Shown piece by piece: positions 3,163 through 36,638 of a stretch of DNA of 64,000 nucleotides. The stretch spans positions 521,525-585,524 of the forward strand of contig CP092821.1 in the NCBI GenBank assembly GCA_022530585.1. Direction: 5' to 3'. Numbering within the stretch: position 1 is the first letter of the stretch; each line of letters opens with the position of its first letter. Under the pieces are notes generated by a model that was given only the letters and a program-made list of their open reading frames with translations, had not been told where the DNA came from and ran no database searches. A program made the translations under genes and the position numbers. This DNA comes from Candidatus Nealsonbacteria bacterium DGGOD1a (GTDB lineage Bacteria; Patescibacteriota; Minisyncoccia; Minisyncoccales; UBA5738).

Positions 3163-4134
3163 ATGAAAAAAATATTTATTGCGTTGGCGATGTTGTTGAT
3201 GGCAGTTGCGGCATTCGCGATTTTTTTTGAGTTCAGCACGCCACAACAGCGGCAAAAGGATACCATTACGATTTTGCGGGGAGAAAACTCGTTGCAGATT
3301 GCCGGCGACCTCAAAGCGGAAGGATATATCAACAGCAAGATTTTCTTTGTGTTGGAATTATTAAAAGGCGGCAATTTCAAAAACCTTAAATCCGGCGAAT
3401 ATGATTTTAAAGATATCGGCCAGACCGAAATGATATACAAACTGGTTCATGCCGATACCGCGGTTAAAACCGTTACCATTGTTCCCGGACAGACATTGGC
3501 GGATATTGCCGCGGTTTTGCGGCAAAAAGATATCGCCGACGCGAACGGATTTTTTGCCGCTTCTTCCACTTTGAATTTTAAAAATAAATACGATTTTCTG
3601 GCGGATCTGCCGGATAACGCGGCCATTGAGGGTTATTTCTTCCCCGATACTTACCAATTGCCGCAAAATCCAACCGCAAGCGATGTTGCCGGTTTGGCTC
3701 TCGATAATTTCGGCAAAAAATTAACTTCGCCGTTGCGCCAAGAAATTAAAAAACGCGGCAAAACGATTTTCGAAACGATTATAATGGCCTCGATTCTGGA
3801 AAAAGAAGTGATAACTTTGGAAGACAAAAAGATTGTTGCCGGAATTTTACAAAAACGGATAAACGAAAAAATGCCATTGCAGGTTGATTGCGCGATTTTG
3901 TATGATAATAACGGAAAATTCGATAAAGAAATCGATTCGCCTTACAACACTTACAAATATGGCGGTTTGCCCGCGGGTCCGATTTGCAATCCCGGGATGG
4001 AATCGATTGAAGCCGCGATCGAACCGGCGGAAACCCGATACTGGTATTACTTGAGCGCGCCGGACGGTACCACGATTTTTTCCAAAAATTATGACGAACA
4101 TCTGGCAAATGTCGCCAAATATTTGAAAAAATGA
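3163..4134 (+). CDS. mltG: Endolytic murein transglycosylase MltG (YceG-like)
   Basis: N-terminal TM anchor. C-terminal YNTYKYGGLPAGPICNPG motif characteristic of the YceG/MltG family. Start placed at MKKIFIALAM. Confidence 0.85.
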   Translation: MKKIFIALAMLLMAVAAFAIFFEFSTPQQRQKDTITILRGENSLQIAGDLKAEGYINSKIFFVLELLKGGNFKNLKSGEYDFKDIGQTEMIYKLVHADTAVKTVTIVPGQTLADIAAVLRQKDIADANGFFAASSTLNFKNKYDFLADLPDNAAIEGYFFPDTYQLPQNPTASDVAGLALDNFGKKLTSPLRQEIKKRGKTIFETIIMASILEKEVITLEDKKIVAGILQKRINEKMPLQVDCAILYDNNGKFDKEIDSPYNTYKYGGLPAGPICNPGMESIEAAIEPAETRYWYYLSAPDGTTIFSKNYDEHLANVAKYLKK

Positions 4135-5982: not shown

Positions 5983-7524
5983 CGCGGCAAAAACAAAACC
6001 CCTCGCGAGAGGGGTTTTGCGCGCAAAGATTATCGCGCCAGACCGTTTTCTTTGACAAAAGCGATCTTTTCGCGCAGAGCTTTGCGGGGGTCGTTTTTGA
6101 AGAAACCGGCAATCCGTTTTCTGAACAGCCATCCCAAGCACAGGATTATGCCGGCAAAAGCGATACCCAGTCCGATCATCATATTGCCGTCAAAACCGGT
6201 TGAGATCGTGGTGGCGCCTTGAATGCCGCGGCGGTAAACATAGACCGAAGCGTTGGAATTGGCCGAATTATTGCCCGCGTAGACCGTGGCTACATTGTTC
6301 AATGTGGTTTGGCCGTAAATGAAATTGCTTTCATCCGCGATTGTGGCCGTGTAGGTGATGATCTTGGTTTGCCCGGCGAAGAATGATCCTAAATTGATGT
6401 CATTTAACGAATTGCCGCTTGCGGCATAGCCGTCAACTTGCAGGTCGCGGATATTGGTAATGCCCGCGGGAACCGCGTCGCTCACGCGCACATTTTCGGA
6501 ATTCCCCGAAACTCCGCCAACAATAATTTTGTAAGAAACAATATCCAGCGGATTGGCGGTTACGGTTCCTTGATAGCCGGTGCCGCGGGAAACATTGCTC
6601 ACGGTCTTGGTGATACTCACATTGCCGGTTTGCGTCTGTCCGCATTGTTCCGCGCGCACGATTTCCGTGTCCGTGGCGGTGCGGCTTCCTTGTTCCACCC
6701 GCACTCGCGCGGTGTAGGAACCGACATTGCGATAATCGCACAAGTTGGTCGCGGTGTAGGAAGTGTTGCTCGTGGTGATGGTTTTGTCCCAACTGCCGTC
6801 GTTTTCGCAGTCAAAATAATAGGTGTAGTCGCGGTTGTAGCTGTCACTGCCGTAATTGGAAATCGTGGCGGTCAGATCAACATCGTATAGCGGGGCGCAA
6901 TCGGATTTGGGCCGCGCGGTCAGAGCGACATTAAAATCCGTTGTCTGATGCTCGACATCGATTCGCACGCTGTCGGAATCCGAACCGCATTCGTTTCTGG
7001 CGGTCAAGGTGCAGGTATAGGTGCGGTCGTAATCATAGTCGGAGTCATAGTTGAACGGCGGACGGAATGTCGGGCGCAAAATATTGTAGTCCGACAAACT
7101 GCCGCCGGTGCAATGCCAGGAAAGGCTGTCGTAATCGCCATCCACCGAACCGTCCAAGCGCACGGATTCATCGCCGTCCACATCTTTGTCCGAACCGGCG
7201 TTGACTTCCAACGGATCGTCGCTGCCGTCCAAAGTCACGCTGTCGAAAGCGCTGGCGTTGCCGTTGTAACAAGTCAAGATGAAAGTCCTCGATCCGGTGA
7301 AATCGCCCACGGATTCCGATCCGGAAGTTAGTTTGCTTCCCGACCACGAACCCGAAGCGCTGCAAGAAGTGGCGTTGGTTGATGTCCAAGTCAAAGTCGC
7401 GTTCTTGTTGCAGGTTACCGAACCGCTGGAGCGCAAATCAACCGTGGGCGTGTTGTAGCCGCAATCTTGCGGGCAAGACGATTGGGTTTCGCCGCACTCG
7501 CAGCTGTCGTCGCCGCAAGAGTAA
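5983..7524. repeat. 1,542-bp perfect inverted repeat, left copy (3' part of paralog 1 plus stop plus terminator)
   Basis: Main frame and all shadow-frame ORFs are identical to those in 15385-16926, mirrored about coordinate sum 22909. Boundaries were checked base by base. Confidence 0.85.
5995..6018. terminator. Bidirectional intrinsic terminator hairpin aaaacccctc-gcga-gaggggtttt
   Basis: Perfect stem flanked by A-run and T-run, between convergent genes 5175-5942(+) and 6030-8231(-). Duplicated at 16891-16914. Confidence 0.75.
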
Positions 7525-8400: not shown

Positions 8401-8438
8401 GGGGTCTATCCCCTTTGTAATCAAAGGGGATAGACCCC
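8401..8438. repeat. Perfect 17-bp-stem hairpin, GGGGTCTATCCC family
   Basis: ggggtctatcccctttg-taat-caaaggggatagacccc, between paralogs 1 and 2. Confidence 0.7.
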
Positions 8439-10699: not shown

Positions 10700-11310
10700 A
10701 CCAATAGGGTGTAAATGACCCTGCGGCAAGACCGCAGGGCGTTCGCAGCTACAATTCAAACAATCGTAACTGGCTCACATCTTTTGGTCTGCCTTGGTTT
10801 TGAATGTATCGCTCAATAACTTTCCTATTACCGCGTGCGCTGATCGTAGCGATATAATAGCCGTCTGTCCAGAACTCTCCACCCCAGAGTTCTTTTTTAA
10901 TTTCGGGAACTTGCCGGAACACCTCGCGCGCGGTAATGCTTTTTATTATTTTGATAACCTGGCCGCCGGAATACTTCGGCAGGAATCTTGCCAGAATATG
11001 GGCGTGGTCTTGGTCGAATCCCACATGGCTGATCTCAATGGCGTACCGTTCCATAAATCCTTTCAGGCTCTCGACAATTGCGGCAATCACCTTTTCGTTC
11101 AGTAATGCTTTGCGATATTTGACCGTAATCTGGATGTGGTAATAACATTCGGAAACATTGTGGTACCAACGCCAGATATCCCGCTTTTCTTGCTCCATAT
11201 TGGCTTATTGTAACACGGACGCGCTTTCGCGCGTGATGGTAGGGGGATATCCCCCTACCAAACCACCCCCTTAAGTTGTTCCCTGCGGCAAGACCGACAG
11301 GGTGAAAACA
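10700..11310 (-). mobile_element. IS200/IS605-family element (tnpA only), approximate limits
   Basis: tnpA is flanked by near-identical hairpins ccctgcggcaagaccgcaggg (10719-10739) and ccctgcggcaagaccgacaggg (11281-11301), plus the palindrome ggtagggggatatccccctacc (11238-11259). Confidence 0.65.
10749..11198 (-). CDS. tnpA: IS200/IS605 family Y1 (HUH) transposase TnpA
   Basis: 149 aa. YHIQITVKYRK, HAHIL (HUH-type) and WTDGYYIATI (catalytic Tyr region) motifs. Confidence 0.85.
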   Translation of the reverse strand: MEQEKRDIWRWYHNVSECYYHIQITVKYRKALLNEKVIAAIVESLKGFMERYAIEISHVGFDQDHAHILARFLPKYSGGQVIKIIKSITAREVFRQVPEIKKELWGGEFWTDGYYIATISARGNRKVIERYIQNQGRPKDVSQLRLFEL

Positions 11311-17060: not shown

Positions 17061-17489
17061 ATGAACAATCCCGATAAAACCACAAAACTGCTTTTTGCCT
17101 GCCTTGATTGGCGTTTGCACCCGGCGATTGAAAATTATTTCGCGCGGGAAAATGTCGCCTGCGATATGTGCATCACCGCCGGTTCCATAAAAGACTTGAT
17201 CAACCCCGAAACGCGAAATTTTTTTATCAAGCAAATTGAAACTTCAAAAAATTTGCATCATTGCCAAGAAGCGATTTTAACCATGCATATGGATTGCGGC
17301 GCCTATGGCGGATCGGCGGCGTTCTCCGGGCGCGAAGAAGAAATCGCTTGCTATACGGAAGAATTGCGCCGCGCCAAAGAGATTATTGCCGGGTGTTTTC
17401 CCGGATTGGCGGTCAAAACATGGTTAGTCGGGCTTGATGAAAAAAATGGCGAATGGGAAATATCGCCCGAAGAAATAAATCTTGATTAA
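17061..17489 (+). CDS. Hypothetical protein with beta-carbonic-anhydrase-like CxDxR / HxxCG metal-site motifs
   Basis: 142 aa. CLDWRLHP and HMDCGAYGG resemble the two beta-CA signatures, but the protein is shorter than typical beta-CAs. Confidence 0.45.
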   Translation: MNNPDKTTKLLFACLDWRLHPAIENYFARENVACDMCITAGSIKDLINPETRNFFIKQIETSKNLHHCQEAILTMHMDCGAYGGSAAFSGREEEIACYTEELRRAKEIIAGCFPGLAVKTWLVGLDEKNGEWEISPEEINLD

Positions 17490-17506
17490 AAGGGTCGGAC
17501 CCTTTT
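17488..17506. repeat. GGGTCSGACCC-core palindrome (aaaagggtcggaccctttt), also a terminator-like hairpin
   Basis: Overlaps the stop codon of 17061-17489. Same core as the palindromes inside uvrC. Confidence 0.7.
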
Positions 17507-19874: not shown

Positions 19875-21848
19875 TCATAAACCATTTTTTGTTTTTAACT
19901 TAATCTCTTGAATTTGTGAATGGATTCGTGCGGCTTTTTCAAATTGCAAATTGCGGCGCGCCAGATCCAATTTGGCGGTTAATTCTTTTTGATATTCTTT
20001 GATAAATTCGTCCGCCGGCAAAACTTCCTCTTTTTTGTCGCGCGCCGACAGGGTTTCTTTGATTTCTTTATAAATTATTTGGGGATTTATTCCTTGTCTT
20101 TTGTTGTAATTATCCTGGATTTTCCGGCGGCGGTCGGTTTCTTCCATCGCGCGGCGCATTGAACCGGTGATGTTGTCCGCGTACATAACCACCAAACCGT
20201 CCGGATGGCGGCTGGCCCGTCCCATAATTTGGACCAATGAAGTTTCGTCGCGCAAAAATCCTTCTTTATCGGCGTCGAAAATTATAATCAGCGACACTTC
20301 CGGCAAGTCCAGCCCTTCGCGCAAAAGATTGATACCGACCAAAACATCGAATTTCCCTTTGCGCAAATCCGCCAAAATTTTCGGACGGGCAAGAGTTTTG
20401 ATTTCCGAATGAAGGTATTCGGCTTTGATGCGGCGTTGCTTCAAGTGATCGGCCAGCGCTTCGGACAGCCGCTTGGTGATTGTGAGGCAAAGCGTCCGTT
20501 GGCCGAGTTTTTTGCGCGCTTCAATTTCTTTGATTGCATTGTCGATTTGATTTTCGGTCGCGCGAACTTCAATTCGCGGATCAAGCAAATAAGTCGGCCG
20601 CACGATCTGTTCGGCGATTTGCTTTGAGGTTTTCTTTTCATAATCGCCGGGCGTGGCCGAAACAAAAACCGTTTGGTTGATTTTTCGCAAAAATTCATCA
20701 TATTTCAACGGCCGGTTGTCAATTGCCGACGGCAGGCGGAAGCCATAGTTGATCAGCGGCTGTTTGCGGGCGAAATCGCCGGCTTGCATCCCGTGAATTT
20801 GCGGCACGGTAATGTGCGATTCGTCGATCATCAGCAAATAATCATCGGGAAAATAATCCAGCAAAGTATAAGGCGCTGAATCCGGTTGCCGAAAATCAAG
20901 ATGGCGCGAATAATTTTCAATGCCATGGCACCAGCCGGTTTCGCGAATCAGTGAAATATCATATTCGGTGCGGCGGCGAATGCGTTCGGCTTCAACCAAT
21001 TTATCCTGTTTTTTAAAATAAGCGATTTGCGCTTCCATTTCTTTTTTAATGTTTTTAATCGCCTCGTCGACTTTATCGCCCCCGGCCATCCAGAATTTTG
21101 CCGGCCACAAATCCGCTTCCGCCGCGGGAATGAAATTCCCAAACGGCGCTTCGCATTCGGCCAAACCAATAATTTTGCCATTAACAATTTCTATCCGGTT
21201 GATGGTTTTCGCTCCCGCCAGCCAAACATCGACAAAATTCATCCGCTTGCGGAATCGTCCGCAAGCCAGCTCATAATCATTGCGTTCATATTGCAAATCC
21301 AGCAAGCGTCCAAACAATTGCTCAAACGACATCGCGTCGCCCACTTTCAAAATTAACCTTTCCTTTAAATAAGTTTCGGGCTTTCCCAAATTGTAGATGC
21401 AGGAAACCGATGCCACGATAATCGTATCGCGGCGCGAAAGCACGCCCTGTACCGCCTCATGGCGCAAACGGTCGATTTCCTGATTAACCATTGAATCCTT
21501 TTCAATATAAGTGTCAGTCGCGGGAATATACGCCTCGGGCTGGTAATAATCATAATAAGAAACAAAATAGCTCACCTGATTATTCGGAAAAAACCCCTTA
21601 AATTCCTCATACAACTGCGCCGCCAGAGTTTTATTGGGCGAAATCACCAAAGTCGGCCGACCGGTCTTCTCAATTACCTTGGCCATCGTATAGGTCTTGC
21701 CCGATCCGGTCACGCCCAACAGCGTCTGAAACTCAAAACCCGCCTTTATTCCTTGGCTTAATTTTTCAATCGCCTGCGGCTGATCTCCCCGCGGCTTAAA
21801 TTTGGATTCAATTTTCAGTTTCCGCATTGTATTTCGTGGCATTTGCAT
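19875..21848 (-). CDS. uvrB: Excinuclease ABC subunit B
   Basis: 657 aa. GVTGSGKTYTMA Walker A, helicase motifs, C-terminal UVR coiled coil (FEKAARIHSQIQEIK). Confidence 0.95.
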   Translation of the reverse strand: MQMPRNTMRKLKIESKFKPRGDQPQAIEKLSQGIKAGFEFQTLLGVTGSGKTYTMAKVIEKTGRPTLVISPNKTLAAQLYEEFKGFFPNNQVSYFVSYYDYYQPEAYIPATDTYIEKDSMVNQEIDRLRHEAVQGVLSRRDTIIVASVSCIYNLGKPETYLKERLILKVGDAMSFEQLFGRLLDLQYERNDYELACGRFRKRMNFVDVWLAGAKTINRIEIVNGKIIGLAECEAPFGNFIPAAEADLWPAKFWMAGGDKVDEAIKNIKKEMEAQIAYFKKQDKLVEAERIRRRTEYDISLIRETGWCHGIENYSRHLDFRQPDSAPYTLLDYFPDDYLLMIDESHITVPQIHGMQAGDFARKQPLINYGFRLPSAIDNRPLKYDEFLRKINQTVFVSATPGDYEKKTSKQIAEQIVRPTYLLDPRIEVRATENQIDNAIKEIEARKKLGQRTLCLTITKRLSEALADHLKQRRIKAEYLHSEIKTLARPKILADLRKGKFDVLVGINLLREGLDLPEVSLIIIFDADKEGFLRDETSLVQIMGRASRHPDGLVVMYADNITGSMRRAMEETDRRRKIQDNYNKRQGINPQIIYKEIKETLSARDKKEEVLPADEFIKEYQKELTAKLDLARRNLQFEKAARIHSQIQEIKLKTKNGL

Positions 21849-22208: not shown

Positions 22209-23456
22209 TTATCTAATTTTTTTAATACATCTCAATCTATTATACCCGATGGCGAAGCGGTGGGCTTCGTCGCGAATTTGTAAAAAAAGATTTGACAAAT
22301 TGGGCGGCAGTTTTGACAATTGGCTGTAATTTTTTGAAAACGGCGAAAATAATTTGCCGTCTTTATCGCCGATTTTTGCCAGCGCCAACACTGGAATATT
22401 TTTTATGTCGCGCGCGGATTTCAATTGGCCCTTGCCGCCGTCAAGCAAGATCAAATCGGGGAGCGGCCATTCTTGGTGCTTCATCCTCCGTTTTAAAATT
22501 TCCGCCAAGGACGCCACATCGTTTTGGCCCTTTACGGTCTTTATCTTGAATTTGCGGTATTCGTTTTTATCCGGTTTTCCGTTTTGAAAAACTACCATCG
22601 ATCCGACCGCCAGAGTGCCGGAGAGGTTCGAGATATCATAACCTTCGATTCGTATGTGTTTTTCGGATGGGCCGTTGCCAAATGCGTCCGACCCATCCAA
22701 GCTCGCGTGGGTCGGACCCACGCAATTTCCCGACTTGCCTTGGTAGATTTGCGCTAAAATCTTGAAAGCGGCGATCATTTGAGAATACGCCATTTTTTGT
22801 TTTTTGTGAAGGCAGGGCGCGGCGCACAGGCCCAGCGAAGCATAAAAGCAAGGTTTTTCCGGCAGGGCGCGGCACGACCGATAGGGCAGTATTTTGCGAA
22901 TTTCTTTTAAAAACGATTTCACCTCGCGCCCGGATACATACGGCCCAAAACAATTTTGAAAGGGTCCGACCCTTTCAATCTTGACCCTTTTAATCTTGAA
23001 AGGGTCGGACCCTTTCAAAGCAGGTTGATGGGTGAGATTTGCGTGGGTCGGACCCACGCAAAATCTGCGAGAATCGGGAATCTGCAAGTTTTTTTCTTCA
23101 AAGGGCCGGTGGGTAAGATAGACGCGGGGAAATGGGTCGGCGGACAGCGCGATGTAAAAATAACTTTTGTCGTCTTTCCATTCCACATTCCAGCGAGGTT
23201 GGAGCTGTTTGATGAATTTTTGCTCCAAAATCAGCGCCGCGTTTTCGGTGTCAGCCAAAATAAAATCAATATCGGCGATTTGCGAAATGAAATCAAATGC
23301 GTGTTGATCCGGCTTTTGGAAATGGTTTTTTACCCGTTTTTTCAAATTTTTTGCCTTGCCAACATAAATCACTCTTTCATTCGCGTCCTTGAAAAAATAC
23401 ACCCCGGCGGTTTGCGGCAAATTTTCAATTTTGTTTTTCAAATCAATATTCATCAA
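22209..23456 (-). CDS. uvrC: Excinuclease ABC subunit C (short form, no C-terminal HhH) carrying in-frame palindromic-repeat insertions
   Basis: GIY-YIG N-terminus (GVYFFKD..VIYVGKA..LKKR), CFGPY..LPYRSC, IEGYDISN, RDEAHRFA. 415 aa. Confidence 0.85.
   Translation of the reverse strand: MMNIDLKNKIENLPQTAGVYFFKDANERVIYVGKAKNLKKRVKNHFQKPDQHAFDFISQIADIDFILADTENAALILEQKFIKQLQPRWNVEWKDDKSYFYIALSADPFPRVYLTHRPFEEKNLQIPDSRRFCVGPTHANLTHQPALKGSDPFKIKRVKIERVGPFQNCFGPYVSGREVKSFLKEIRKILPYRSCRALPEKPCFYASLGLCAAPCLHKKQKMAYSQMIAAFKILAQIYQGKSGNCVGPTHASLDGSDAFGNGPSEKHIRIEGYDISNLSGTLAVGSMVVFQNGKPDKNEYRKFKIKTVKGQNDVASLAEILKRRMKHQEWPLPDLILLDGGKGQLKSARDIKNIPVLALAKIGDKDGKLFSPFSKNYSQLSKLPPNLSNLFLQIRDEAHRFAIGYNRLRCIKKIR
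22682..22723. repeat. GGGTCSGACCC-core palindromic element inside uvrC (second site)
   Basis: gcgtgggtcggacccacgc (22705-22723) plus half-site gtccgaccc (22687-22695). Translated as NCVGPTHASLDGSD. Confidence 0.75.
22956..23062. repeat. Cluster of three GGGTCSGACCC-core palindromes inside uvrC (first site)
   Basis: ttgaaagggtccgaccctttcaa (22956-22978), ttgaaagggtcggaccctttcaa (22996-23018), tttgcgtgggtcggacccacgcaaa (23038-23062). Confidence 0.8.
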
Positions 23457-23638
23457 ATGATCATATCAAAAAATGGGTACTTGACAAGAATCTTGACTTA
23501 ACGGCTCTATTTTTTTAATAAATTTTTAGCGTATTGATTGATTTGAAATAATGGCATAACAATGCTATATAAAAATCGTTAGGGATTTAATCTCTAGCCG
23601 AACAAAAATATTTGTTCGCAATATTTGAAAATACTGAC

Positions 23639-23764
23639 GCCCCACGCGGTACCCGCCAGTGGGGCCTAGGTAAGACGGCATTCGCCGCCATGGGAGAGGC
23701 AGTCTATCAGAGGCCTCTCCCGATTTGATAAATTTAACCGTGGCCGCAAGGCCGCTTTTTGTTT
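23639..23764 (+). ncRNA. Candidate small structured RNA ending in a canonical intrinsic terminator (family unknown)
   Basis: Hairpins 23639-23665 (GCCCCAC/GTGGGGC) and 23692-23721 (GGGAGAGGC/GCCTCTCCC). Terminator GTGGCC-GCAA-GGCCGC plus TTTTT at 23740-23764. Lies in the uvrC/uvrA divergent spacer. The 5' end is undefined. Confidence 0.35.
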
Positions 23765-23856
23765 GAATGCCCACTGCATCTTTTCAAATCTTGACATTTG
23801 GGGTACAATGAATACTTCTTATATTATTGCGCGCAAATCAAACAGATTTTGATTTT

Positions 23857-26763
23857 ATGGAAAATGATTTTATTGAACTTTCGGGCGTTAAGGTTCACAA
23901 TTTGAAGAATATCTCGGTCAAAATACCTAAGAACAAACTGGTGGTGATTTGCGGTATTTCCGGGTCGGGGAAGTCGTCGCTGGCGTTTGACACGATCTTT
24001 AACGAGGGTCAGCGGCGGTATTTGGAAAGCTTGTCGTCGTACGCGCGGCAGTTTTTGGGCGGATTGAAAAAACCGGATGTGGAAAAAATCAGCGGGTTGT
24101 CGCCCACGATCGCGGTGAACCAAAAAACCATCTCTTCCAACCCGCGCTCCACCGTGGGCACGCTCACCGAGATTTACGATTACTTGCGCTTGCTTTATTC
24201 GCACATCGGCATCGCGCATTGTCCAAAGTGCGGCAAACCGGTAACCACGCAAACTCCGAATCATATGGCCGAACGCGTATTCGCCATGGCGATGGAGTTT
24301 GAGACCACTTTGATCGCTCCCGTGATTGCGGCCAAAAAAGGCGGCCACCTTGGCGTTTTGGAAGAAATTTATCGCAGCGGCTGGCCGCAAATCATTATCG
24401 ACGGCATCACTTATTCATCCGAAGAAGGCAAGGACAAACTGCTTGATAAAAACAAAGCGCATAATATCGGCGTGCCGATCGACAAATTCGATCTGAAAAA
24501 ATTCGGCTCGGCGGCGCTAAAAACTTCGGTAAAACAAGGTAAAAATATCTCCAAAACAGAGCAGGAAGCTCTGGCGACCAAAAAAAAGAAGTTGGAAGGC
24601 GTGATCAAGGAAGAAAAGGAACGCATTTTGGCATCCGTGAAAAAAGCCTTGGAAATGGGCAAAGGAAGAATCGATGTTTCCCGAAAAATCGGCAAGATCG
24701 AGAAAAAGGAATCTTTTTCGAGTTTTTTCTCCTGTCCGGACTGCCAGGTATCCTTGCCCGATATTGAACCCAAGATATTTTCATTTAACAGTCCTTACGG
24801 CGCTTGCAAAACATGCCAAGGGTTGGGCAAGCTGGCCAAGGTAAACCGGGAATTGGTTTTGAATCCGCGCCTGTCTTTGAACGAGGGCGCGATTTTGCCG
24901 TGGTTTTCGCTCGGCCGCTGGACTTTGCGGACATTGGGCGTGCCTTATCAAAAATGGTCGCTGGAAAAACTGGCGGAGAAGGAAGGTTTTTCGCTGAATG
25001 TTCCGTTCAAAGAATTGCCGGAAGACATCCAGCAGTTGGTTTTGTTCGGAGACAAGAAACATAGCGGCTACGAAGCGATTATTCCGCGGATGGAACGCGC
25101 GTATCGCGAAACTACTTCGGAATATCTGCGCGCGGAAATTTCAAAATATATGTCCGAAATCGCTTGCCCCGATTGCGATGGCGCGAGATTATCGCCCGAA
25201 GCTTTGGCGGTAAAAGTGGGAGGGAAAAGCATTTATGAAGCTTCGTCGATGCCGGTGCGCGATGAAATCGCTTTTTTTAAAAAATTGCAGGGCGAATTGC
25301 CCGCCAAACAGAAAGAAGTGGCCGAATCGATTTTGCGGGAAATTTGCAAACGGCTGGGTTTTTTGGTTGAAGTGGGCGTGGATTACATCGATCTGGCCCG
25401 CGAAGCCACAACGCTGTCCGTGGGCGAAAACCAGCGCATTCGTTTGGCCTGCCAGCTGGGTTCGGCGCTTTCGGGCGTGATCTATGTATTGGATGAACCC
25501 ACCGTGGGCCTGCACCAGCGCGATGTCGATCGTTTAATCGGCGCGTTGCAAAAGCTCAAGGAATTAAAAAATACCGTGATCGTGGTCGAACACGACGAGC
25601 AAGTGATGAAAGCCGCGGATTGGGTTGTCGAGATCGGTCCGGCGGCGGGAATTCACGGCGGCAAAGTTGTTTTTGAAGGTACGCCGCCGCAACTGTTAAA
25701 AGCCGATAGCCTTACCGGAAAATATTTGTCCGAGCGGCTGACAATCAACACCGGATTCAAGAAAAAAGAGATCACCGATCGGACGCTTTGGATGGAACTT
25801 AGCGGCGCGAATCAATTCACATTAAAAAACATTGACCTGAAAATTCCGTTGGGCAAGTTGGTGACGATTTGCGGCGTGTCCGGCTCGGGCAAGAGCACGC
25901 TGATCATTGATACGCTTTCAAGCATCCTGATGCGCGACATTATGCGCGCGCGCACGGTTCCGGGCAAATACGGCGAATTGAAAGGTGCGGAGCGCTTAAA
26001 TAAAGCGGTTCTGGTGGACCAAAGCCCGATCGGCAAAACTCCGCGTTCAAATCCGGCCACCTATACCGGCGTCTTTAATCATATTCGCGAACTTTACACC
26101 CGCACGCGCGATTCGCAAATGCGGGGTTTCACCGCCGGCCACTTTTCTTTCAACACCCAAAAAGGTCGCTGTCCGGCTTGCCAAGGCGAAGGCTGGCAAA
26201 AAGTGGAAATGTATTTTTTGCCCGATGTCTATGTGGAATGCGAGCTTTGTAAAGGACAAAGATTTACCTCCGAAGTGCTGGGGGCAAAATATCACGACAA
26301 AAACATTGCCGATGTTTTGAATATGAGCATTGACGAGGCTAAAACATTTTTTACCGACATCCCGGTCATCAGCGATAAAATGCAACTGCTTTCCGATATC
26401 GGCTTAGGCTATCTAAAATTAGGTCAATCCGCCCCCAGCTTGTCGGGCGGAGAAGCCCAGCGCATCAAACTTGCCAGCGAGCTGGCCAAACGCGATACCG
26501 GCAACACGGTTTATATCCTTGACGAGCCCACGGTCGGCCTTCACTTTGACGATGCCAAAAAACTTTTGATCATCCTGCGCCGCCTGGTGGAGAAAGGCAA
26601 CAGCGTCATCATTATCGAGCACAACCTCCAAATCGTGAAAGAAAGCGATTGGTGCGTTGAACTCGGCCCGGACGGCGGGGACAAGGGCGGCAAGATCATC
26701 TTCACCGGCACTCCGGAACAACTGGCGAAAAGCAACACCTGGACCGCGAAGTTTTTGAAATAA
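23857..26763 (+). CDS. uvrA: Excinuclease ABC subunit A
   Basis: Two ABC modules ([18 protein letters not shown]; [16 protein letters not shown]) and zinc-finger CxxC pairs. Start placed at [10 protein letters not shown]. Confidence 0.95.
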
Positions 26764-29654: not shown

Positions 29655-29763
29655 AAAAATACGGGCGATTACACGGAATCGCCCCTACAAAATTCGCGTT
29701 TGCATTTGTAGGGGCGAAACTATGTTTTCGCCCGCATTGAATTTTATTTTATTGAGTGCAATA

Positions 29764-29851
29764 CCTCGGGGCTTTGCCCCGGGGTGCACCAAGAGGATTC
29801 CAAAGGGGTGCCCCCTTTGGTCGTCGTGCGGGGTTCATACCCCGCTCGACG
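29764..29851 (-). repeat. Structured intergenic repeat family, copy 4 (short form)
   Basis: The reverse complement gives gcggggtatgaaccccgc, ccaaagggggcaccccTTTGGAATCCTC and ccccggggcaaagccccg, collinear with 57820-57933 and with compensatory stem changes. Confidence 0.6.
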
Positions 29852-32055: not shown

Positions 32056-32781
32056 TTGGATGAAATAGGCGAGTTAAGGCCGATTTTATTTATTCCCGGA
32101 TTTTTGCGCGACGAAGAAACGGTTGCGCGGGTATCGCAAATTCTTGAACAAGTCCAACCGGTTTTCAATGAAGCCGGTTGGAAAATCGTGGTTTCTAATT
32201 ATTATCAAGGGGAACCAATGGATAATTCTTTGGAAATCTATGCGAGAAGCGTTTATGCTGATATTTTTTACGGAAAATATCGCACCATAATCGCTCATTC
32301 AATGGGCGGATTGCTGATTCCGGAAAAATTGCCACGGCAAATGCTCCCGCCGGTAATTATTGAATCGCCACTAAACGGAGTTACCATGCGGCAATTCAAA
32401 ATTATCAATCTGCTGGCAAGATTAAAAGGATTGGGAAAATCGCGCTTTCCGCTGGACAATATCAGCGTTCAAGGAATGTTGAGAAACGGTGATTTCATGG
32501 AAAATCGCAGAACCAAAAATTTTCCATGGATGATGCCAATGCTCCAAATAAACGGTTCACTGGGAACGAATTTTCTTGCCCGTTGGGACGGCGACACATT
32601 TGGAAAACATACCGATTGTATTGGGGTATATAAAGAATTTCCAAAAATTGATCATATCGCTCTCTTAACCGATCCCGATGTGATAAAAGCGGTTATAGCC
32701 CATTTAAATCGATGGGATGATAAATATGACGCTTTATCGCAACGGAGGATATATCGGAGGCCCCTCGAGGACGAACCTTGA
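32056..32781 (+). CDS. Alpha/beta hydrolase (lipase/esterase-like, AHSMGG nucleophile elbow)
   Basis: TTG start with AAGGAGG SD. LFIPGF and IIAHSMGGLL motifs. Confidence 0.6.
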   Translation: MDEIGELRPILFIPGFLRDEETVARVSQILEQVQPVFNEAGWKIVVSNYYQGEPMDNSLEIYARSVYADIFYGKYRTIIAHSMGGLLIPEKLPRQMLPPVIIESPLNGVTMRQFKIINLLARLKGLGKSRFPLDNISVQGMLRNGDFMENRRTKNFPWMMPMLQINGSLGTNFLARWDGDTFGKHTDCIGVYKEFPKIDHIALLTDPDVIKAVIAHLNRWDDKYDALSQRRIYRRPLEDEP

Positions 32782-32902
32782 GGCCTTTTTTTATACACGC
32801 GCAAGACGAATTTGCATAGATTTGCATAGGTGCCACCTATGCAATTTTTGTGTTTTCGACGGGTTTTTGGTATGTTGAAGGTATAAACATAAGCAATGGA
32901 AT

Positions 32903-36571: not shown

Positions 36572-36594
36572 AATTTTTGTCCTGTTGGGGTTCT

Positions 36595-36638
36595 GTTGAG
36601 GTCAAACCTCAACAAGTTTGTTGAGGTTTGACCTCAAC
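36595..36638. promoter_or_regulatory. Twin 19-bp palindromes (gttgaggtcaaacctcaac / gttgaggtttgacctcaac) upstream of dnaB
   Basis: Together they form a 44-bp near-perfect palindrome 24 nt upstream of the dnaB start. Confidence 0.4.

Follow-up and report, generated by a model that had tools for sequence, protein, structure and literature searches.

Coding sequence is normally free of long perfect inverted repeats, since they conflict with protein function and destabilise DNA. In the mitochondria of Nematomorpha (hairworms), perfect palindromes are found within coding sequence, and arm conversion or template switching has been suggested, although not established, as the process that keeps them up; the authors see a parasitic character in repeats that are so maintained (PMC6649704). 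The Rickettsia palindromic elements (RPEs) are described (Ogata et al. 2000, 2002, summarised in PMC10969869) as units of about 150 bp belonging to about ten families, with 44 insertions in unrelated genes of R. conorii and a conserved peptide encoded by each. The repetitive extragenic palindromic (REP) sequences and the REP doublets forming hairpins (REPINs) are built from short palindromic units that are extragenic and abundant and are tied to a single-copy REP-associated tyrosine transposase (RAYT) (Bertels and Rainey 2011, PMC3116915; PMC3337134), and the REP sequences carry a conserved GTAG or CGTC head (PMC3733652). Here we describe palindromes inside uvrC, a nucleotide-excision-repair gene, in a 64,000-nucleotide stretch of the Candidatus Nealsonbacteria bacterium DGGOD1a genome (contig CP092821.1, positions 521,525 to 585,524; the whole stretch is called the window below), and at the same sites in its relatives among the Minisyncoccales. 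Bacteria of this clade, which are ultra-small members of the Candidate Phyla Radiation (CPR), keep translated perfect palindromes of 40–60 nt at two sites of a single DNA-repair gene, and the palindromes turn over in sequence. An earlier note on the same DNA knew of no description of such elements in CPR-type genomes, and our search of the literature on CPR, Patescibacteria and Parcubacteria has also found none.

The motif GGGTCSGACCC has five exact matches in the window, at 17492, 22709, 22962, 23002 and 23045, whereas 100 dinucleotide shuffles gave 0.03 on average and never reached five. When one or two mismatches were allowed, one decayed copy was added (22684, GCGTCCGACCC) and the remaining extra matches stayed at the chance level. 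The matches within the open reading frame (ORF) at 22209–23456 thus agree with the earlier note, which had placed four full palindromes and at least one partial copy in frame inside uvrC; of the two blocks it gave, 22956–23062 is correct, whereas '22682-23723' is a typing error for 22682–22723. A window-wide scan for perfect hairpins of at least 8 bp returned 42, compared with 2–12 in shuffles. Outside uvrC these hairpins are almost all intergenic and terminator-like, and uvrC is the sole gene in the window that carries a cluster. The features within it are listed below (L numbers denote loci and P numbers UvrC proteins in the comparison).

22209 to 23456, minus strand: short uvrC, an ORF of 415 amino acids from a TTG start
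22950 to 23108, minus strand: linker 1 (residues 117–169, 53 amino acids), between the GIY-YIG domain and the FGPY/Cys region
22955 to 23019: inverted doublet in linker 1, made up of the 23-nt palindromes TTGAAAGGGTC[C]GACCCTTTCAA and TTGAAAGGGTC[G]GACCCTTTCAA
22956 to 22978: full palindrome TTGAAAGGGTCCGACCCTTTCAA, inside uvrC
22996 to 23018: full palindrome TTGAAAGGGTCGGACCCTTTCAA, inside uvrC
23038 to 23062: full palindrome TTTGCGTGGGTCGGACCCACGCAAA, inside uvrC
23039 to 23119, minus strand: 81-nt (27-residue) insertion in linker 1, in the window and L136 lineages only
22653 to 22742, minus strand: linker 2 (residues 239–268, 30 amino acids), between the middle region and the RNase H endonuclease domain
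22683 to 22725: decaying inverted doublet in linker 2, the full palindrome GCGTGGGTCGGACCCACGC(AA) at 22705–22725 plus the partial copy TGCGTCCGACCCA at 22683–22695
22705 to 22723: full palindrome GCGTGGGTCGGACCCACGC, inside uvrC

The start of uvrC is probably the next ATG, which would give a protein of 414 amino acids. This protein contains a GIY-YIG domain, a four-cysteine middle region and the UvrC RNase H endonuclease domain, without the UVR and (HhH)2 domains; it matches Pfam PF01541 and PF08459 as well as NCBIfam TIGR00194 (290.8 bits, above the cut-off). The gene is flanked by uvrB (19875–21848, minus strand) and uvrA (23827–26763, plus strand), an order kept in relatives, and its closest database relatives are short UvrC proteins of 340–415 amino acids from Paceibacteria/Minisyncoccales metagenome bins. 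An assembly artefact was considered and rejected, since independent assemblies at JGI, ENA and NCBI carry an identical palindrome-bearing uvrC (L001 = L002; L003 = L004 = L087).

Both blocks are located between domains, as had been proposed before. The UvrC domains covered by PDB structures map to residues 2–99 and 265–412, with the endonuclease domain starting at 265–269, and the linkers fall outside them. In the AlphaFold model, which has a mean predicted local distance difference test score (pLDDT) of 70.8, the pLDDT is below 50 at residues 120–164 and 242–265, corresponding to the two blocks, and the linker segments are predicted to be disordered. In the protein alignment the linkers appear as two hypervariable regions, linker 1 after ...LTH(Q) and linker 2 after ...IYQG; both are at their shortest in remote orthologues and are filled to a varying degree in closer ones. 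Linker 1 has 13 amino acids in the unoccupied orthologue L093 and down to 9 in P0033 and P0044, and linker 2 has 5 in the unoccupied orthologues L090, L093 and L140. Both blocks are missing from the distant short UvrC orthologues P0045, P0049/L093, P0052, P0057, P0077, P0082, P0089 and P0106, so that they can be called lineage-specific additions that preserve the frame, as the earlier note had expected.

The two copies of the linker 1 doublet differ in their central base alone (C versus G), which identifies them as an inverted doublet. Its arms (22955–22978 and 22996–23019) are 24 nt long and 100% complementary, and the 17-nt spacer between them contains the half-site GACCCTTTTAA. The two copies are translated in different frames, one giving KGSDPF and the other ERVGPF. 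The doublet is identical in L135 and L136, and in L092 the central bases are T/A instead of C/G. An RNA fold of the 136 nt around it reaches −68 kcal/mol (z = −8.7).

The 81-nt insertion, also in linker 1, combines the palindrome TTTGCGTGGGTCGGACCCACGCAAA (23038–23062) with a non-palindromic part of about 46 nt. Terminal inverted repeats are missing from it, and it is bounded by a 10-nt direct repeat (TGGGTGAGAT at 23029–23038 and TGGGTAAGAT at 23110–23119). In the DNA alignment, L135 and L092 have this decamer once and lack the 81 nt, while L136, which shares the insertion, is a 97%-identical relative of the window; as judged from this alignment, the insertion is a recent gain in the window/L136 lineage. 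No other copy of its ~46-nt non-palindromic part was found in the window or in the 140 fetched loci. In linker 2, the arms of the decaying doublet are 13 nt long and 92% complementary. Its palindrome has the same sequence as that of the 81-nt insertion (21 nt, 95% complementary to 23039–23059), and both are read as CVGPTHA, in agreement with the peptide reported earlier from the two blocks. The palindromes are thus translated in the ORF as CVGPTHA (twice), KGSDPF and ERVGPF, and linker peptides such as ...FCVGPTHANLTH... are predicted from the translation.

We have obtained the uvrC DNA of 17 distinct Minisyncoccales lineages. The DNA covered throughout this study is the 64 kb of this genome and about 10 kb on each side of uvrC in relatives, where hairpins were located by palindrome search. 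A perfect palindrome of at least 7 bp is present in the linkers of 16 of the 17 lineages, and one of at least 10 bp in 15 of them; L093 has a palindrome at neither linker. The lineages share the linker sites but differ in the sequence of the palindromes, examples from the relatives being AGTGGAGGTCAAACCTCCACT, CAGGGGTTGAACCCCTG, TGCAAGGTCGCACCTTGCA, TTGCGGGGGTCCAACCCCCGCAA, TGCGAAGGTCTAACCTTCGCA, CAGAGGGTCTAACCCTCTG and GCAGGAGCAAGACTCCTGC. Whether orthologues contain the same segments, a point raised in the earlier note, therefore has a divided answer: they do have palindromes at the same sites, but not the same sequences.

The longest perfect inverted repeat per lineage measures 24, 24, 21, 10, 22, 22, 11, 22, 22, 27, 15, 23, 13, 21, 20, 7 and 5 bp in linker 1, and 10, 10, 24, 11, 23, 21, 14, 6, 24, 11, 22, 21, 10 and 4 bp in linker 2, which is empty (5 amino acids) in three lineages. 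A perfect inverted repeat of 20–27 bp is therefore found in linker 1 of 11/17 lineages, and one of 21–24 bp in 6/14 lineages with an occupied linker 2. Most of the palindromes in relatives are inverted doublets with perfect stems of 20–27 bp, and a tally of the listed hairpins gave 17 inverted doublets and 2 direct ones (binomial p = 4e-4). Single palindromes are 17–29 nt long and doublets 43–63 nt. Loops are altogether absent from some perfect palindromes, whose length is 44 nt in the case of L003/L138 and 54 nt in that of L089. Both hairpins of the L091 doublet contain an internal mismatch and are nevertheless perfectly complementary to one another over 22 bp. The pairs that flank the perfect stems include 2 sense G-U, 6 antisense G-U and 19 other pairs; there is no sense-strand G-U excess, and selection on the RNA of the sense strand is not evident from these pairs.

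The palindromes are read in frames 0, 1 and 2, and the same palindrome gives KGSDPF/ERVGPF or CVGPTHA/RGSDPR; since all three frames are used, the peptides are not conserved. A pattern C-x-G-x-T-x-A does occur in linker 2 of 31/45 orthologues, and is the frame-0 translation of TGC-Gnn-GGT-nnn-ACC-nnC-GCA. In all 17 lineages the frame is open and the insert lengths are multiples of three. Translational bypass was rejected for this reason, and because the frame is kept through every insert, ordinary translation of the inserts as part of UvrC appears to be the simplest reading of these sequences.

The feature is strongly concentrated in one gene. Perfect hairpins of at least 9 bp were counted in 14 close loci (245 kb). 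The uvrC genes have 35 of them within 16.5 kb, all other coding sequence has 15 within 195 kb, and the intergenic DNA has 55, making the density in uvrC 27-fold higher than in the remaining coding sequence (binomial p = 1e-27); none of the 15 is a clear family member. As a negative control, 75 distant UvrC genes (98 kb; 25–56% identity) from a metagenome scan, with no close relative among the matches listed, contained 8 hairpins, indicating that the feature belongs to this clade and not to uvrC generally. We have also compared nine orthologue clusters of neighbours, namely uvrA, uvrB, uvrC, two transporters, RmuC, L21, a carbonic-anhydrase-like protein and a surface protein. Strongly palindromic indels were seen in uvrC alone, with two weak cases (6–7-bp stems) in uvrA. 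Statements that uvrC is the only such gene refer to about 70 sampled gene families.

Some other structures were noted in the uvr genes. Smaller, imperfectly palindromic inserts occur at three or four more sites of uvrC in individual lineages. The uvrC genes of L088 and L001 contain an imperfect palindrome of 33 nt (read as GPPNGEARRSGG), which is missing from L005 despite its close similarity to L088. A second type of insert, GC-rich and starting with AACCCGCCTTC..., is read as NPPSS..YGG, NPAFAQGYGA or NPPSNKAGAG, and its sites are surface loops of uvrA (L091, L005), uvrC (L089) and uvrB (L086). The uvrB gene itself contains a conserved 9-bp hairpin, GCTTGCGGA-NNNN-TCCGCAAGC, at 21245–21266 of the window, 11543–11564 of L092 and 4398–4419 of L135. 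It encodes ...ACGRFRK... in a conserved UvrB motif and is not an insertion; its stem is kept and its loop is variable between lineages.

Outside uvrC, the 64 kb contain one exact-core copy and about 3–6 related intergenic palindromes, and related palindromes were also met elsewhere in relatives, so the earlier statement that the motif is repeated beyond uvrC stands. The three relevant sites in the window are as follows.

17488 to 17506: palindrome AAAAGGGTCGGACCCTTTT / AAAGGGTCGGACCCTTT, with the linker 1 core, overlapping the stop codon of a Pro_CA_2-like gene (17061–17489) and followed by TTTTT
32822 to 32844: TTGCATAGGTGCCACCTATGCAA, a palindrome in intergenic DNA upstream of an NTP_transf_2/HEPN gene pair, with the half-site TTGCATAG before it
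36594 to 36638: inverted doublet in the intergenic DNA just before dnaB, GTTGAGGTCAAACCTCAAC-AAGTTT-GTTGAGGTTTGACCTCAAC (21-bp stem)

The copy at 17488–17506 looks like an intrinsic terminator, with its 9-bp GC-rich stem and TTTTT run, and to this extent it is the stop-overlapping terminator hairpin that had been described. It is not a private insertion, however; the same palindrome is found at the orthologous Pro_CA_2/Trp_Tyr_perm junction in L003, L004 and L087, and is hence shared by descent or exchange. The 32822 23-mer (TTGCATAGGTGNCACCTATGCAA) sits, its central base apart, in uvrC linker 2 of L086, and twice in intergenic DNA of L092. The core of the doublet upstream of dnaB, GAGGTCAAACCTC, is the uvrC linker 1 type of L001, L086, L091 and L137, with a variant GGAAGTCAAACTTCC in L094. 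L091 contains the same 25-mer in uvrC and downstream of uvrA (L091 1741 and L091 5358), and L090 has a GGGTCGGACCC palindrome just upstream of uvrB. Within uvrC, the same palindrome occupies both linkers in the window (TTGCGTGGGTCSGACCCACGC), in L089 (TGCAAGGTCGCACCTTGCA) and in L005/L088 (TGCGGGGGTTTAACCCCCGCA). Palindromes shared across sites in this manner point to copying between sites, at very low copy number. When viral contigs were scanned with the palindrome patterns, one pattern gave no match and the other a single match, in a GC-rich unrelated contig, which was dismissed as chance.

The uvrC gene is also mosaic at the level of its domains. In the alignment of P0001–P0044, the UvrC domains (D1, D2 and D3) have discordant nearest relatives: D1 of P0005 is 99% identical to that of P0011, but its D3 is only 76% identical and is P0009-like; D1 of P0006 is 100% identical to that of P0012, but its D2 is closest to P0007; and the window compared with P0001 has 90% identity in D1 and 100% in D2 and D3. 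The palindrome types of linker 1 and linker 2 reassort between lineages as well. In L093, a pseudogene fragment of about 150 nt (11241 to ~11400; ~93% identical, with a 1-nt deletion) derives from a P0006/L138-like uvrC allele. It is located about 600 nt downstream of the intact, palindrome-free uvrC, and its left end is inside hairpin 1 of linker 2. The domain-level discordance suggests that uvrC segments are often exchanged homologously among co-occurring lineages.

Taken together, we consider it somewhat more probable than the contrary that the uvrC blocks are coding palindromes that homogenise themselves at the DNA level, persist in permissive linkers and are tolerated when translated. On this view, the inserts would have no required role for UvrC and would behave as a local genomic parasite or a mutational by-product. 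Short hairpin-forming repeats would have entered two disordered linkers of a shortened UvrC early in a Minisyncoccales clade, and would afterwards have persisted with continual remodelling instead of being lost. A palindrome of about 21–25 nt is indeed resident in the linker. Template switching during replication, or snap-back synthesis, could copy such a palindrome in inverted orientation to give doublets with perfect 20–27-bp arms, and could also convert mismatches in one arm onto the other, keeping the complementarity while the sequence drifts between lineages. We propose this step because of the perfect arms, the zero-loop palindromes and the covariation in the loops; an RNA stem does not need zero-loop perfect arms, whereas inverted duplication or arm conversion predicts them. 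Occasional copying from linker to linker, and from uvrC to intergenic sites or back, may then have produced the shared palindromes, and recombination between lineages may have exchanged whole uvrC segments, of which the mosaic pattern is the visible side. Only stop-free events with a length that is a multiple of three would survive. Such survival is expected where the linkers are unconstrained, and it would leave DNA that is translated as a variable, unstructured linker peptide without conserved sequence, as is found in the alignment. Copies would finally decay by point mutation and deletion, as is seen in the partial copy at 22683 and in the short or empty linkers, and an element may be hard to delete cleanly from inside a gene. 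Different sequences of the same architecture recur at the same two sites, a pattern in better agreement with long residence and turnover in place than with transposition that struck repeatedly and at random. The recent 81-nt gain and the position of the inserts in low-confidence linkers outside the PDB-covered domains also speak for this explanation, as do the L093 fragment, the discordant domains and the reassorted linker types, which may reflect fragility or recombination at the palindromes. The reasoning is close to that put forward for the hairworm mitochondria (PMC6649704).

Several points weigh against this explanation. It does not account for uvrC being the sole host among the ~70 gene families and also the target of the newest insertion. 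The arm length clusters at 20–27 bp across unrelated sequences, which could reflect a constraint such as a two-turn duplex. It is surprising that the palindromes survive across lineages with only 55–60% protein identity and in genomes that are thought to lose DNA readily by deletion. Template switching is deduced from sequence patterns only, and copying to distant sites needs another mechanism, the only transposase gene in the window being of the IS200 type with unrelated hairpins (see below). The sampling, too, is that of 64 kb plus ~10 kb on each side of uvrC in relatives.

An alternative, which we regard as unlikely, is that the structure itself is selected as a cis element, with stems of ~20–27 bp placed at both uvrC domain boundaries and conserved in structure and not in sequence. 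In RNA, the stems might be sites for processing by RNase III or other enzymes, attenuators, or ribosome-pausing sites that keep the UvrC dosage low or pace its folding; in DNA, they might be cruciforms acting as recombination hot spots. In E. coli the copy number of UvrC is kept very low, and the conserved position and architecture, the compensated changes in stems and paired loops, the clustering of stem lengths at 20–27 bp, the very stable fold (−68 kcal/mol, z = −8.7) and the restriction to uvrC in the sampled DNA would all be in line with such selection. One stem with a U-rich tail was flagged as terminator-like in the sense direction, but the region has just as many terminator-like structures as shuffled sequence would be expected to give. 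Moreover, one or both elements are missing from L093, L090 and L140 and from eight proteins with an 'empty' linker 2, in genes that are otherwise intact; some lineages have direct doublets or a single 10–14-bp hairpin; and arms that are perfectly Watson–Crick paired with essentially no G-U pairs, and in some cases loop-less, are atypical for selected RNA stems. No family reached its threshold in Rfam 15, where the only matches were generic long-hairpin ones to plastid 3′ untranslated region and microRNA-precursor models, the best with 37.8 bits versus a gathering score of 53.1. The more specific proposal that the paired stems form a selected module, either a double-stranded RNA of about two turns (for RNase III or ribosome stalling, setting the UvrC dosage or pacing the folding of its domains one after another) or cruciform hot spots through which co-existing CPR lineages swap the three uvrC domain cassettes, is to us slightly less credible still, although the domain mosaicism and the L093 fragment broken at a hairpin hint at its cruciform version.

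We are more doubtful about a classical non-autonomous mobile element of the RPE, REPIN or miniature inverted-repeat transposable element (MITE) kind, moved in trans and repeatedly targeting the uvrC linkers. The 81-nt insertion with its 10-nt direct repeat does resemble an insertion with target-site duplication, identical palindromes exist at different loci (window 32822 and uvrC of L086; window 36594 and uvrC of L001, L086 and L091; L091 1741 and 5358), and the inverted doublets have a REPIN-like layout, which is also that of two terminal inverted repeats with almost nothing between them. However, the insertion lacks terminal inverted repeats and its non-palindromic part is single-copy in the window and fetched loci, there is one other exact-core copy in 64 kb, uvrC is the sole target among the sampled genes, and many unrelated palindrome sequences would all have to target the same two sites. 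Zero-loop perfect palindromes are likewise unexpected from two separate insertions, and the uvrC palindromes have no GTAG or CGTC head. A transposase gene is available within the window (10749–11198, minus strand, 149 amino acids, IS200/IS605 family; Pfam Y1_Tnp E = 1e-30), but it scores as an IS200 enzyme (110.9 bits, cut-off 55) and not as a RAYT (32.9 bits, cut-off 80). Its gene is flanked by the perfect hairpins CCCTGCGGCAAGACCGCAGGG and TGGTAGGGGGATATCCCCCTACCA (10719–10739, 11237–11260), with which it probably forms an intact IS200-type element; these hairpins are unrelated to the uvrC palindromes, and a role of this enzyme as the palindrome mover found no support. Finally, functional peptides, such as interaction loops or metal-binding Cys motifs, with the palindromy being incidental, seem very improbable to us. 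The recurrence of C-x-G-x-T-x-A in linker 2 and the occurrence of cysteines near the four-cysteine motif would speak for them, but this pattern is exactly what a palindrome gives in frame 0, its variable residues change in the paired way that the palindrome predicts, and elsewhere the same DNA in other frames gives unrelated peptides. The segments are, in addition, predicted to be disordered and are missing from related, functional-looking orthologues.

A protein-binding site is a poor description of the uvrC palindromes, which are too variable. Operators were also looked for in the vicinity. The sequence CGAACAAAAATATTTGTTCG at 23599–23618, in the divergent uvrC–uvrA promoter region, has half-sites resembling those of the Gram-positive SOS box, but spaced by 10 nt, and in L139 a LexA homologue (6188–6838; LexA_DNA_bind plus Peptidase_S24) adjoins uvrA, beside a type I/II restriction-modification module. 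A LexA/SOS operator was rejected, as CGAACAAAAATATTTGTTCG is not conserved in 14 other loci, and no conserved SOS-box-like palindrome was found in the uvrC–uvrA spacer across the loci compared. A small ORF between uvrC and uvrB was also dropped as a candidate partner gene, its sequence not being conserved between lineages. Genes for 23S rRNA-intervening-sequence protein / bAvd-like proteins are present in L140 at 2085–2453 (~2 kb beyond uvrA) and 10729–11130 (immediately downstream of uvrB).

Several further repeats were recorded. In L092, a direct repeat of ~85 nt (2215–2320 and 3195–3300) brackets an NTP_transf_2/HEPN (toxin-antitoxin-like) gene pair, each copy containing the palindrome TTGCATAGGTGSCACCTATGCAA and a terminator hairpin; the window has one copy of this repeat type (32760–32850) upstream of the same gene pair, and the repeat could be an operator or a cassette boundary. 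Strong intergenic hairpins of other types are found in the window at 8401–8438 (GGGGTCTATCCCCTTTGTAATCAAAGGGGATAGACCCC, 17-bp stem) and upstream of rplU at 29663–29820 (a trio of two GGGCGA...TCGCCC hairpins and CCAAAGGGGTGCCCCCTTTGG), and GGGCGAAT-type hairpins recur in L001, L003, L005, L089, L092 and L140. Two distant loci from unrelated, GC-richer organisms have classical REP/REPIN-like families: GTCGGGTCATCGACCCGAC occurs four times in L065 (1015–2150), in inverted pairs ~109 nt apart, and GTCAGGTACCCCGTACCTGAC three times in L049 (12453–12932), in contrast to the low-copy uvrC palindromes.

If the favoured explanation of a self-maintaining parasite is true, the uvrC palindromes would be, to our knowledge, the first bacterial chromosomal counterpart of the hairworm coding palindromes, and a compact natural system in which to follow, in reduced genomes, how template switching converts palindromes, how palindromes survive and how much a linker tolerates. 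Should it be the structure that is selected, they would represent a new type of regulatory or recombination element inside the coding region of a nucleotide-excision-repair gene. In either case, UvrC alignments are inflated and scrambled by these segments, and lineage-specific 'motifs' that arise from them, such as CVGPTHA, are spurious.

Comparison with the mobile palindromic families shows partial likeness in each case. The uvrC inserts are similar to RPEs in being palindromic, in-frame insertions in a reduced genome that are translated at fold-compatible positions, but the earlier proposal of an RPE-like mobile element colonising coding regions is not supported, given the small units, low copy number, use of three frames and confinement to uvrC in the sampled DNA. 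The units are 17–29 nt, or 43–63 nt as doublets, compared with ~100–150 nt for RPEs (a separation by size, not by sequence comparison), and they occupy one gene at two recurrent sites; the spread over many genes and the single-frame peptide of RPEs are thus absent from the sampled DNA, where the fold-compatible in-frame insertion is present. Furthermore, RPEs lose their repeat identity with time, whereas the uvrC palindromes stay perfect. With REP/REPIN sequences they share inverted doublets that form a long hairpin over a short spacer, long vertical persistence and terminator-like intergenic copies. Unlike those, their main copies are inside a gene, their copy number is tiny, they have no head, and the only Y1 enzyme in the window is of the IS200 type, so that of the REP/REPIN characters the inverted doublet is found, and the extragenic location, the high copy number and the head with RAYT (the latter within the window) are not. 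MITEs are moved by a DDE transposase and have terminal inverted repeats, a target-site duplication and multiple identical copies. The 81-nt insertion has the 10-nt flanking repeat, lacks terminal inverted repeats and is single-copy in the window and the fetched loci, and each doublet resembles terminal inverted repeats with nothing else attached, but is not multi-copy in the sampled DNA.

The inserts are also reminiscent of the 'byp' inserts of Magnusiomyces mitochondria and of phage T4 gene 60, which are short, GC-rich hairpin inserts of tens of nt in coding genes. The byp elements are skipped by the ribosome and do not need the frame, whereas the uvrC inserts keep it in all 17 lineages. Quasipalindrome template switching in bacteria, studied by Ripley and Lovett, is a replication error that reportedly turns imperfect inverted repeats into perfect ones, and inverted duplications can also arise from it. 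Such mutagenesis predicts that arms are perfect and that paired positions change in concert, as seen in uvrC; it is known at isolated hot spots, and is not known to have been described behind a clade-wide, gene-specific and long-lived coding feature. A likeness in kind is seen with the Nematomorpha, where perfect in-frame inverted repeats are also present in translated genes, with all-or-none identity of the arms, no surplus of imperfect repeats and dynamic gain and loss between species. Those repeats belong to animal mitochondria, reach up to 284 bp, are scattered over many genes and encode conserved protein in both arms. The uvrC palindromes are in a CPR chromosome, have 20–27-bp arms often made from two small palindromes, are limited to the non-conserved linkers of one gene among coding sequence sampled, and have intergenic copies as well; they share the perfect arms in an intact ORF, but not the conserved arms or the many genes. 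A palindromic repeat that is gene-specific and clade-wide, in a bacterial chromosome, is what sets the uvrC case apart from the known coding palindromes.

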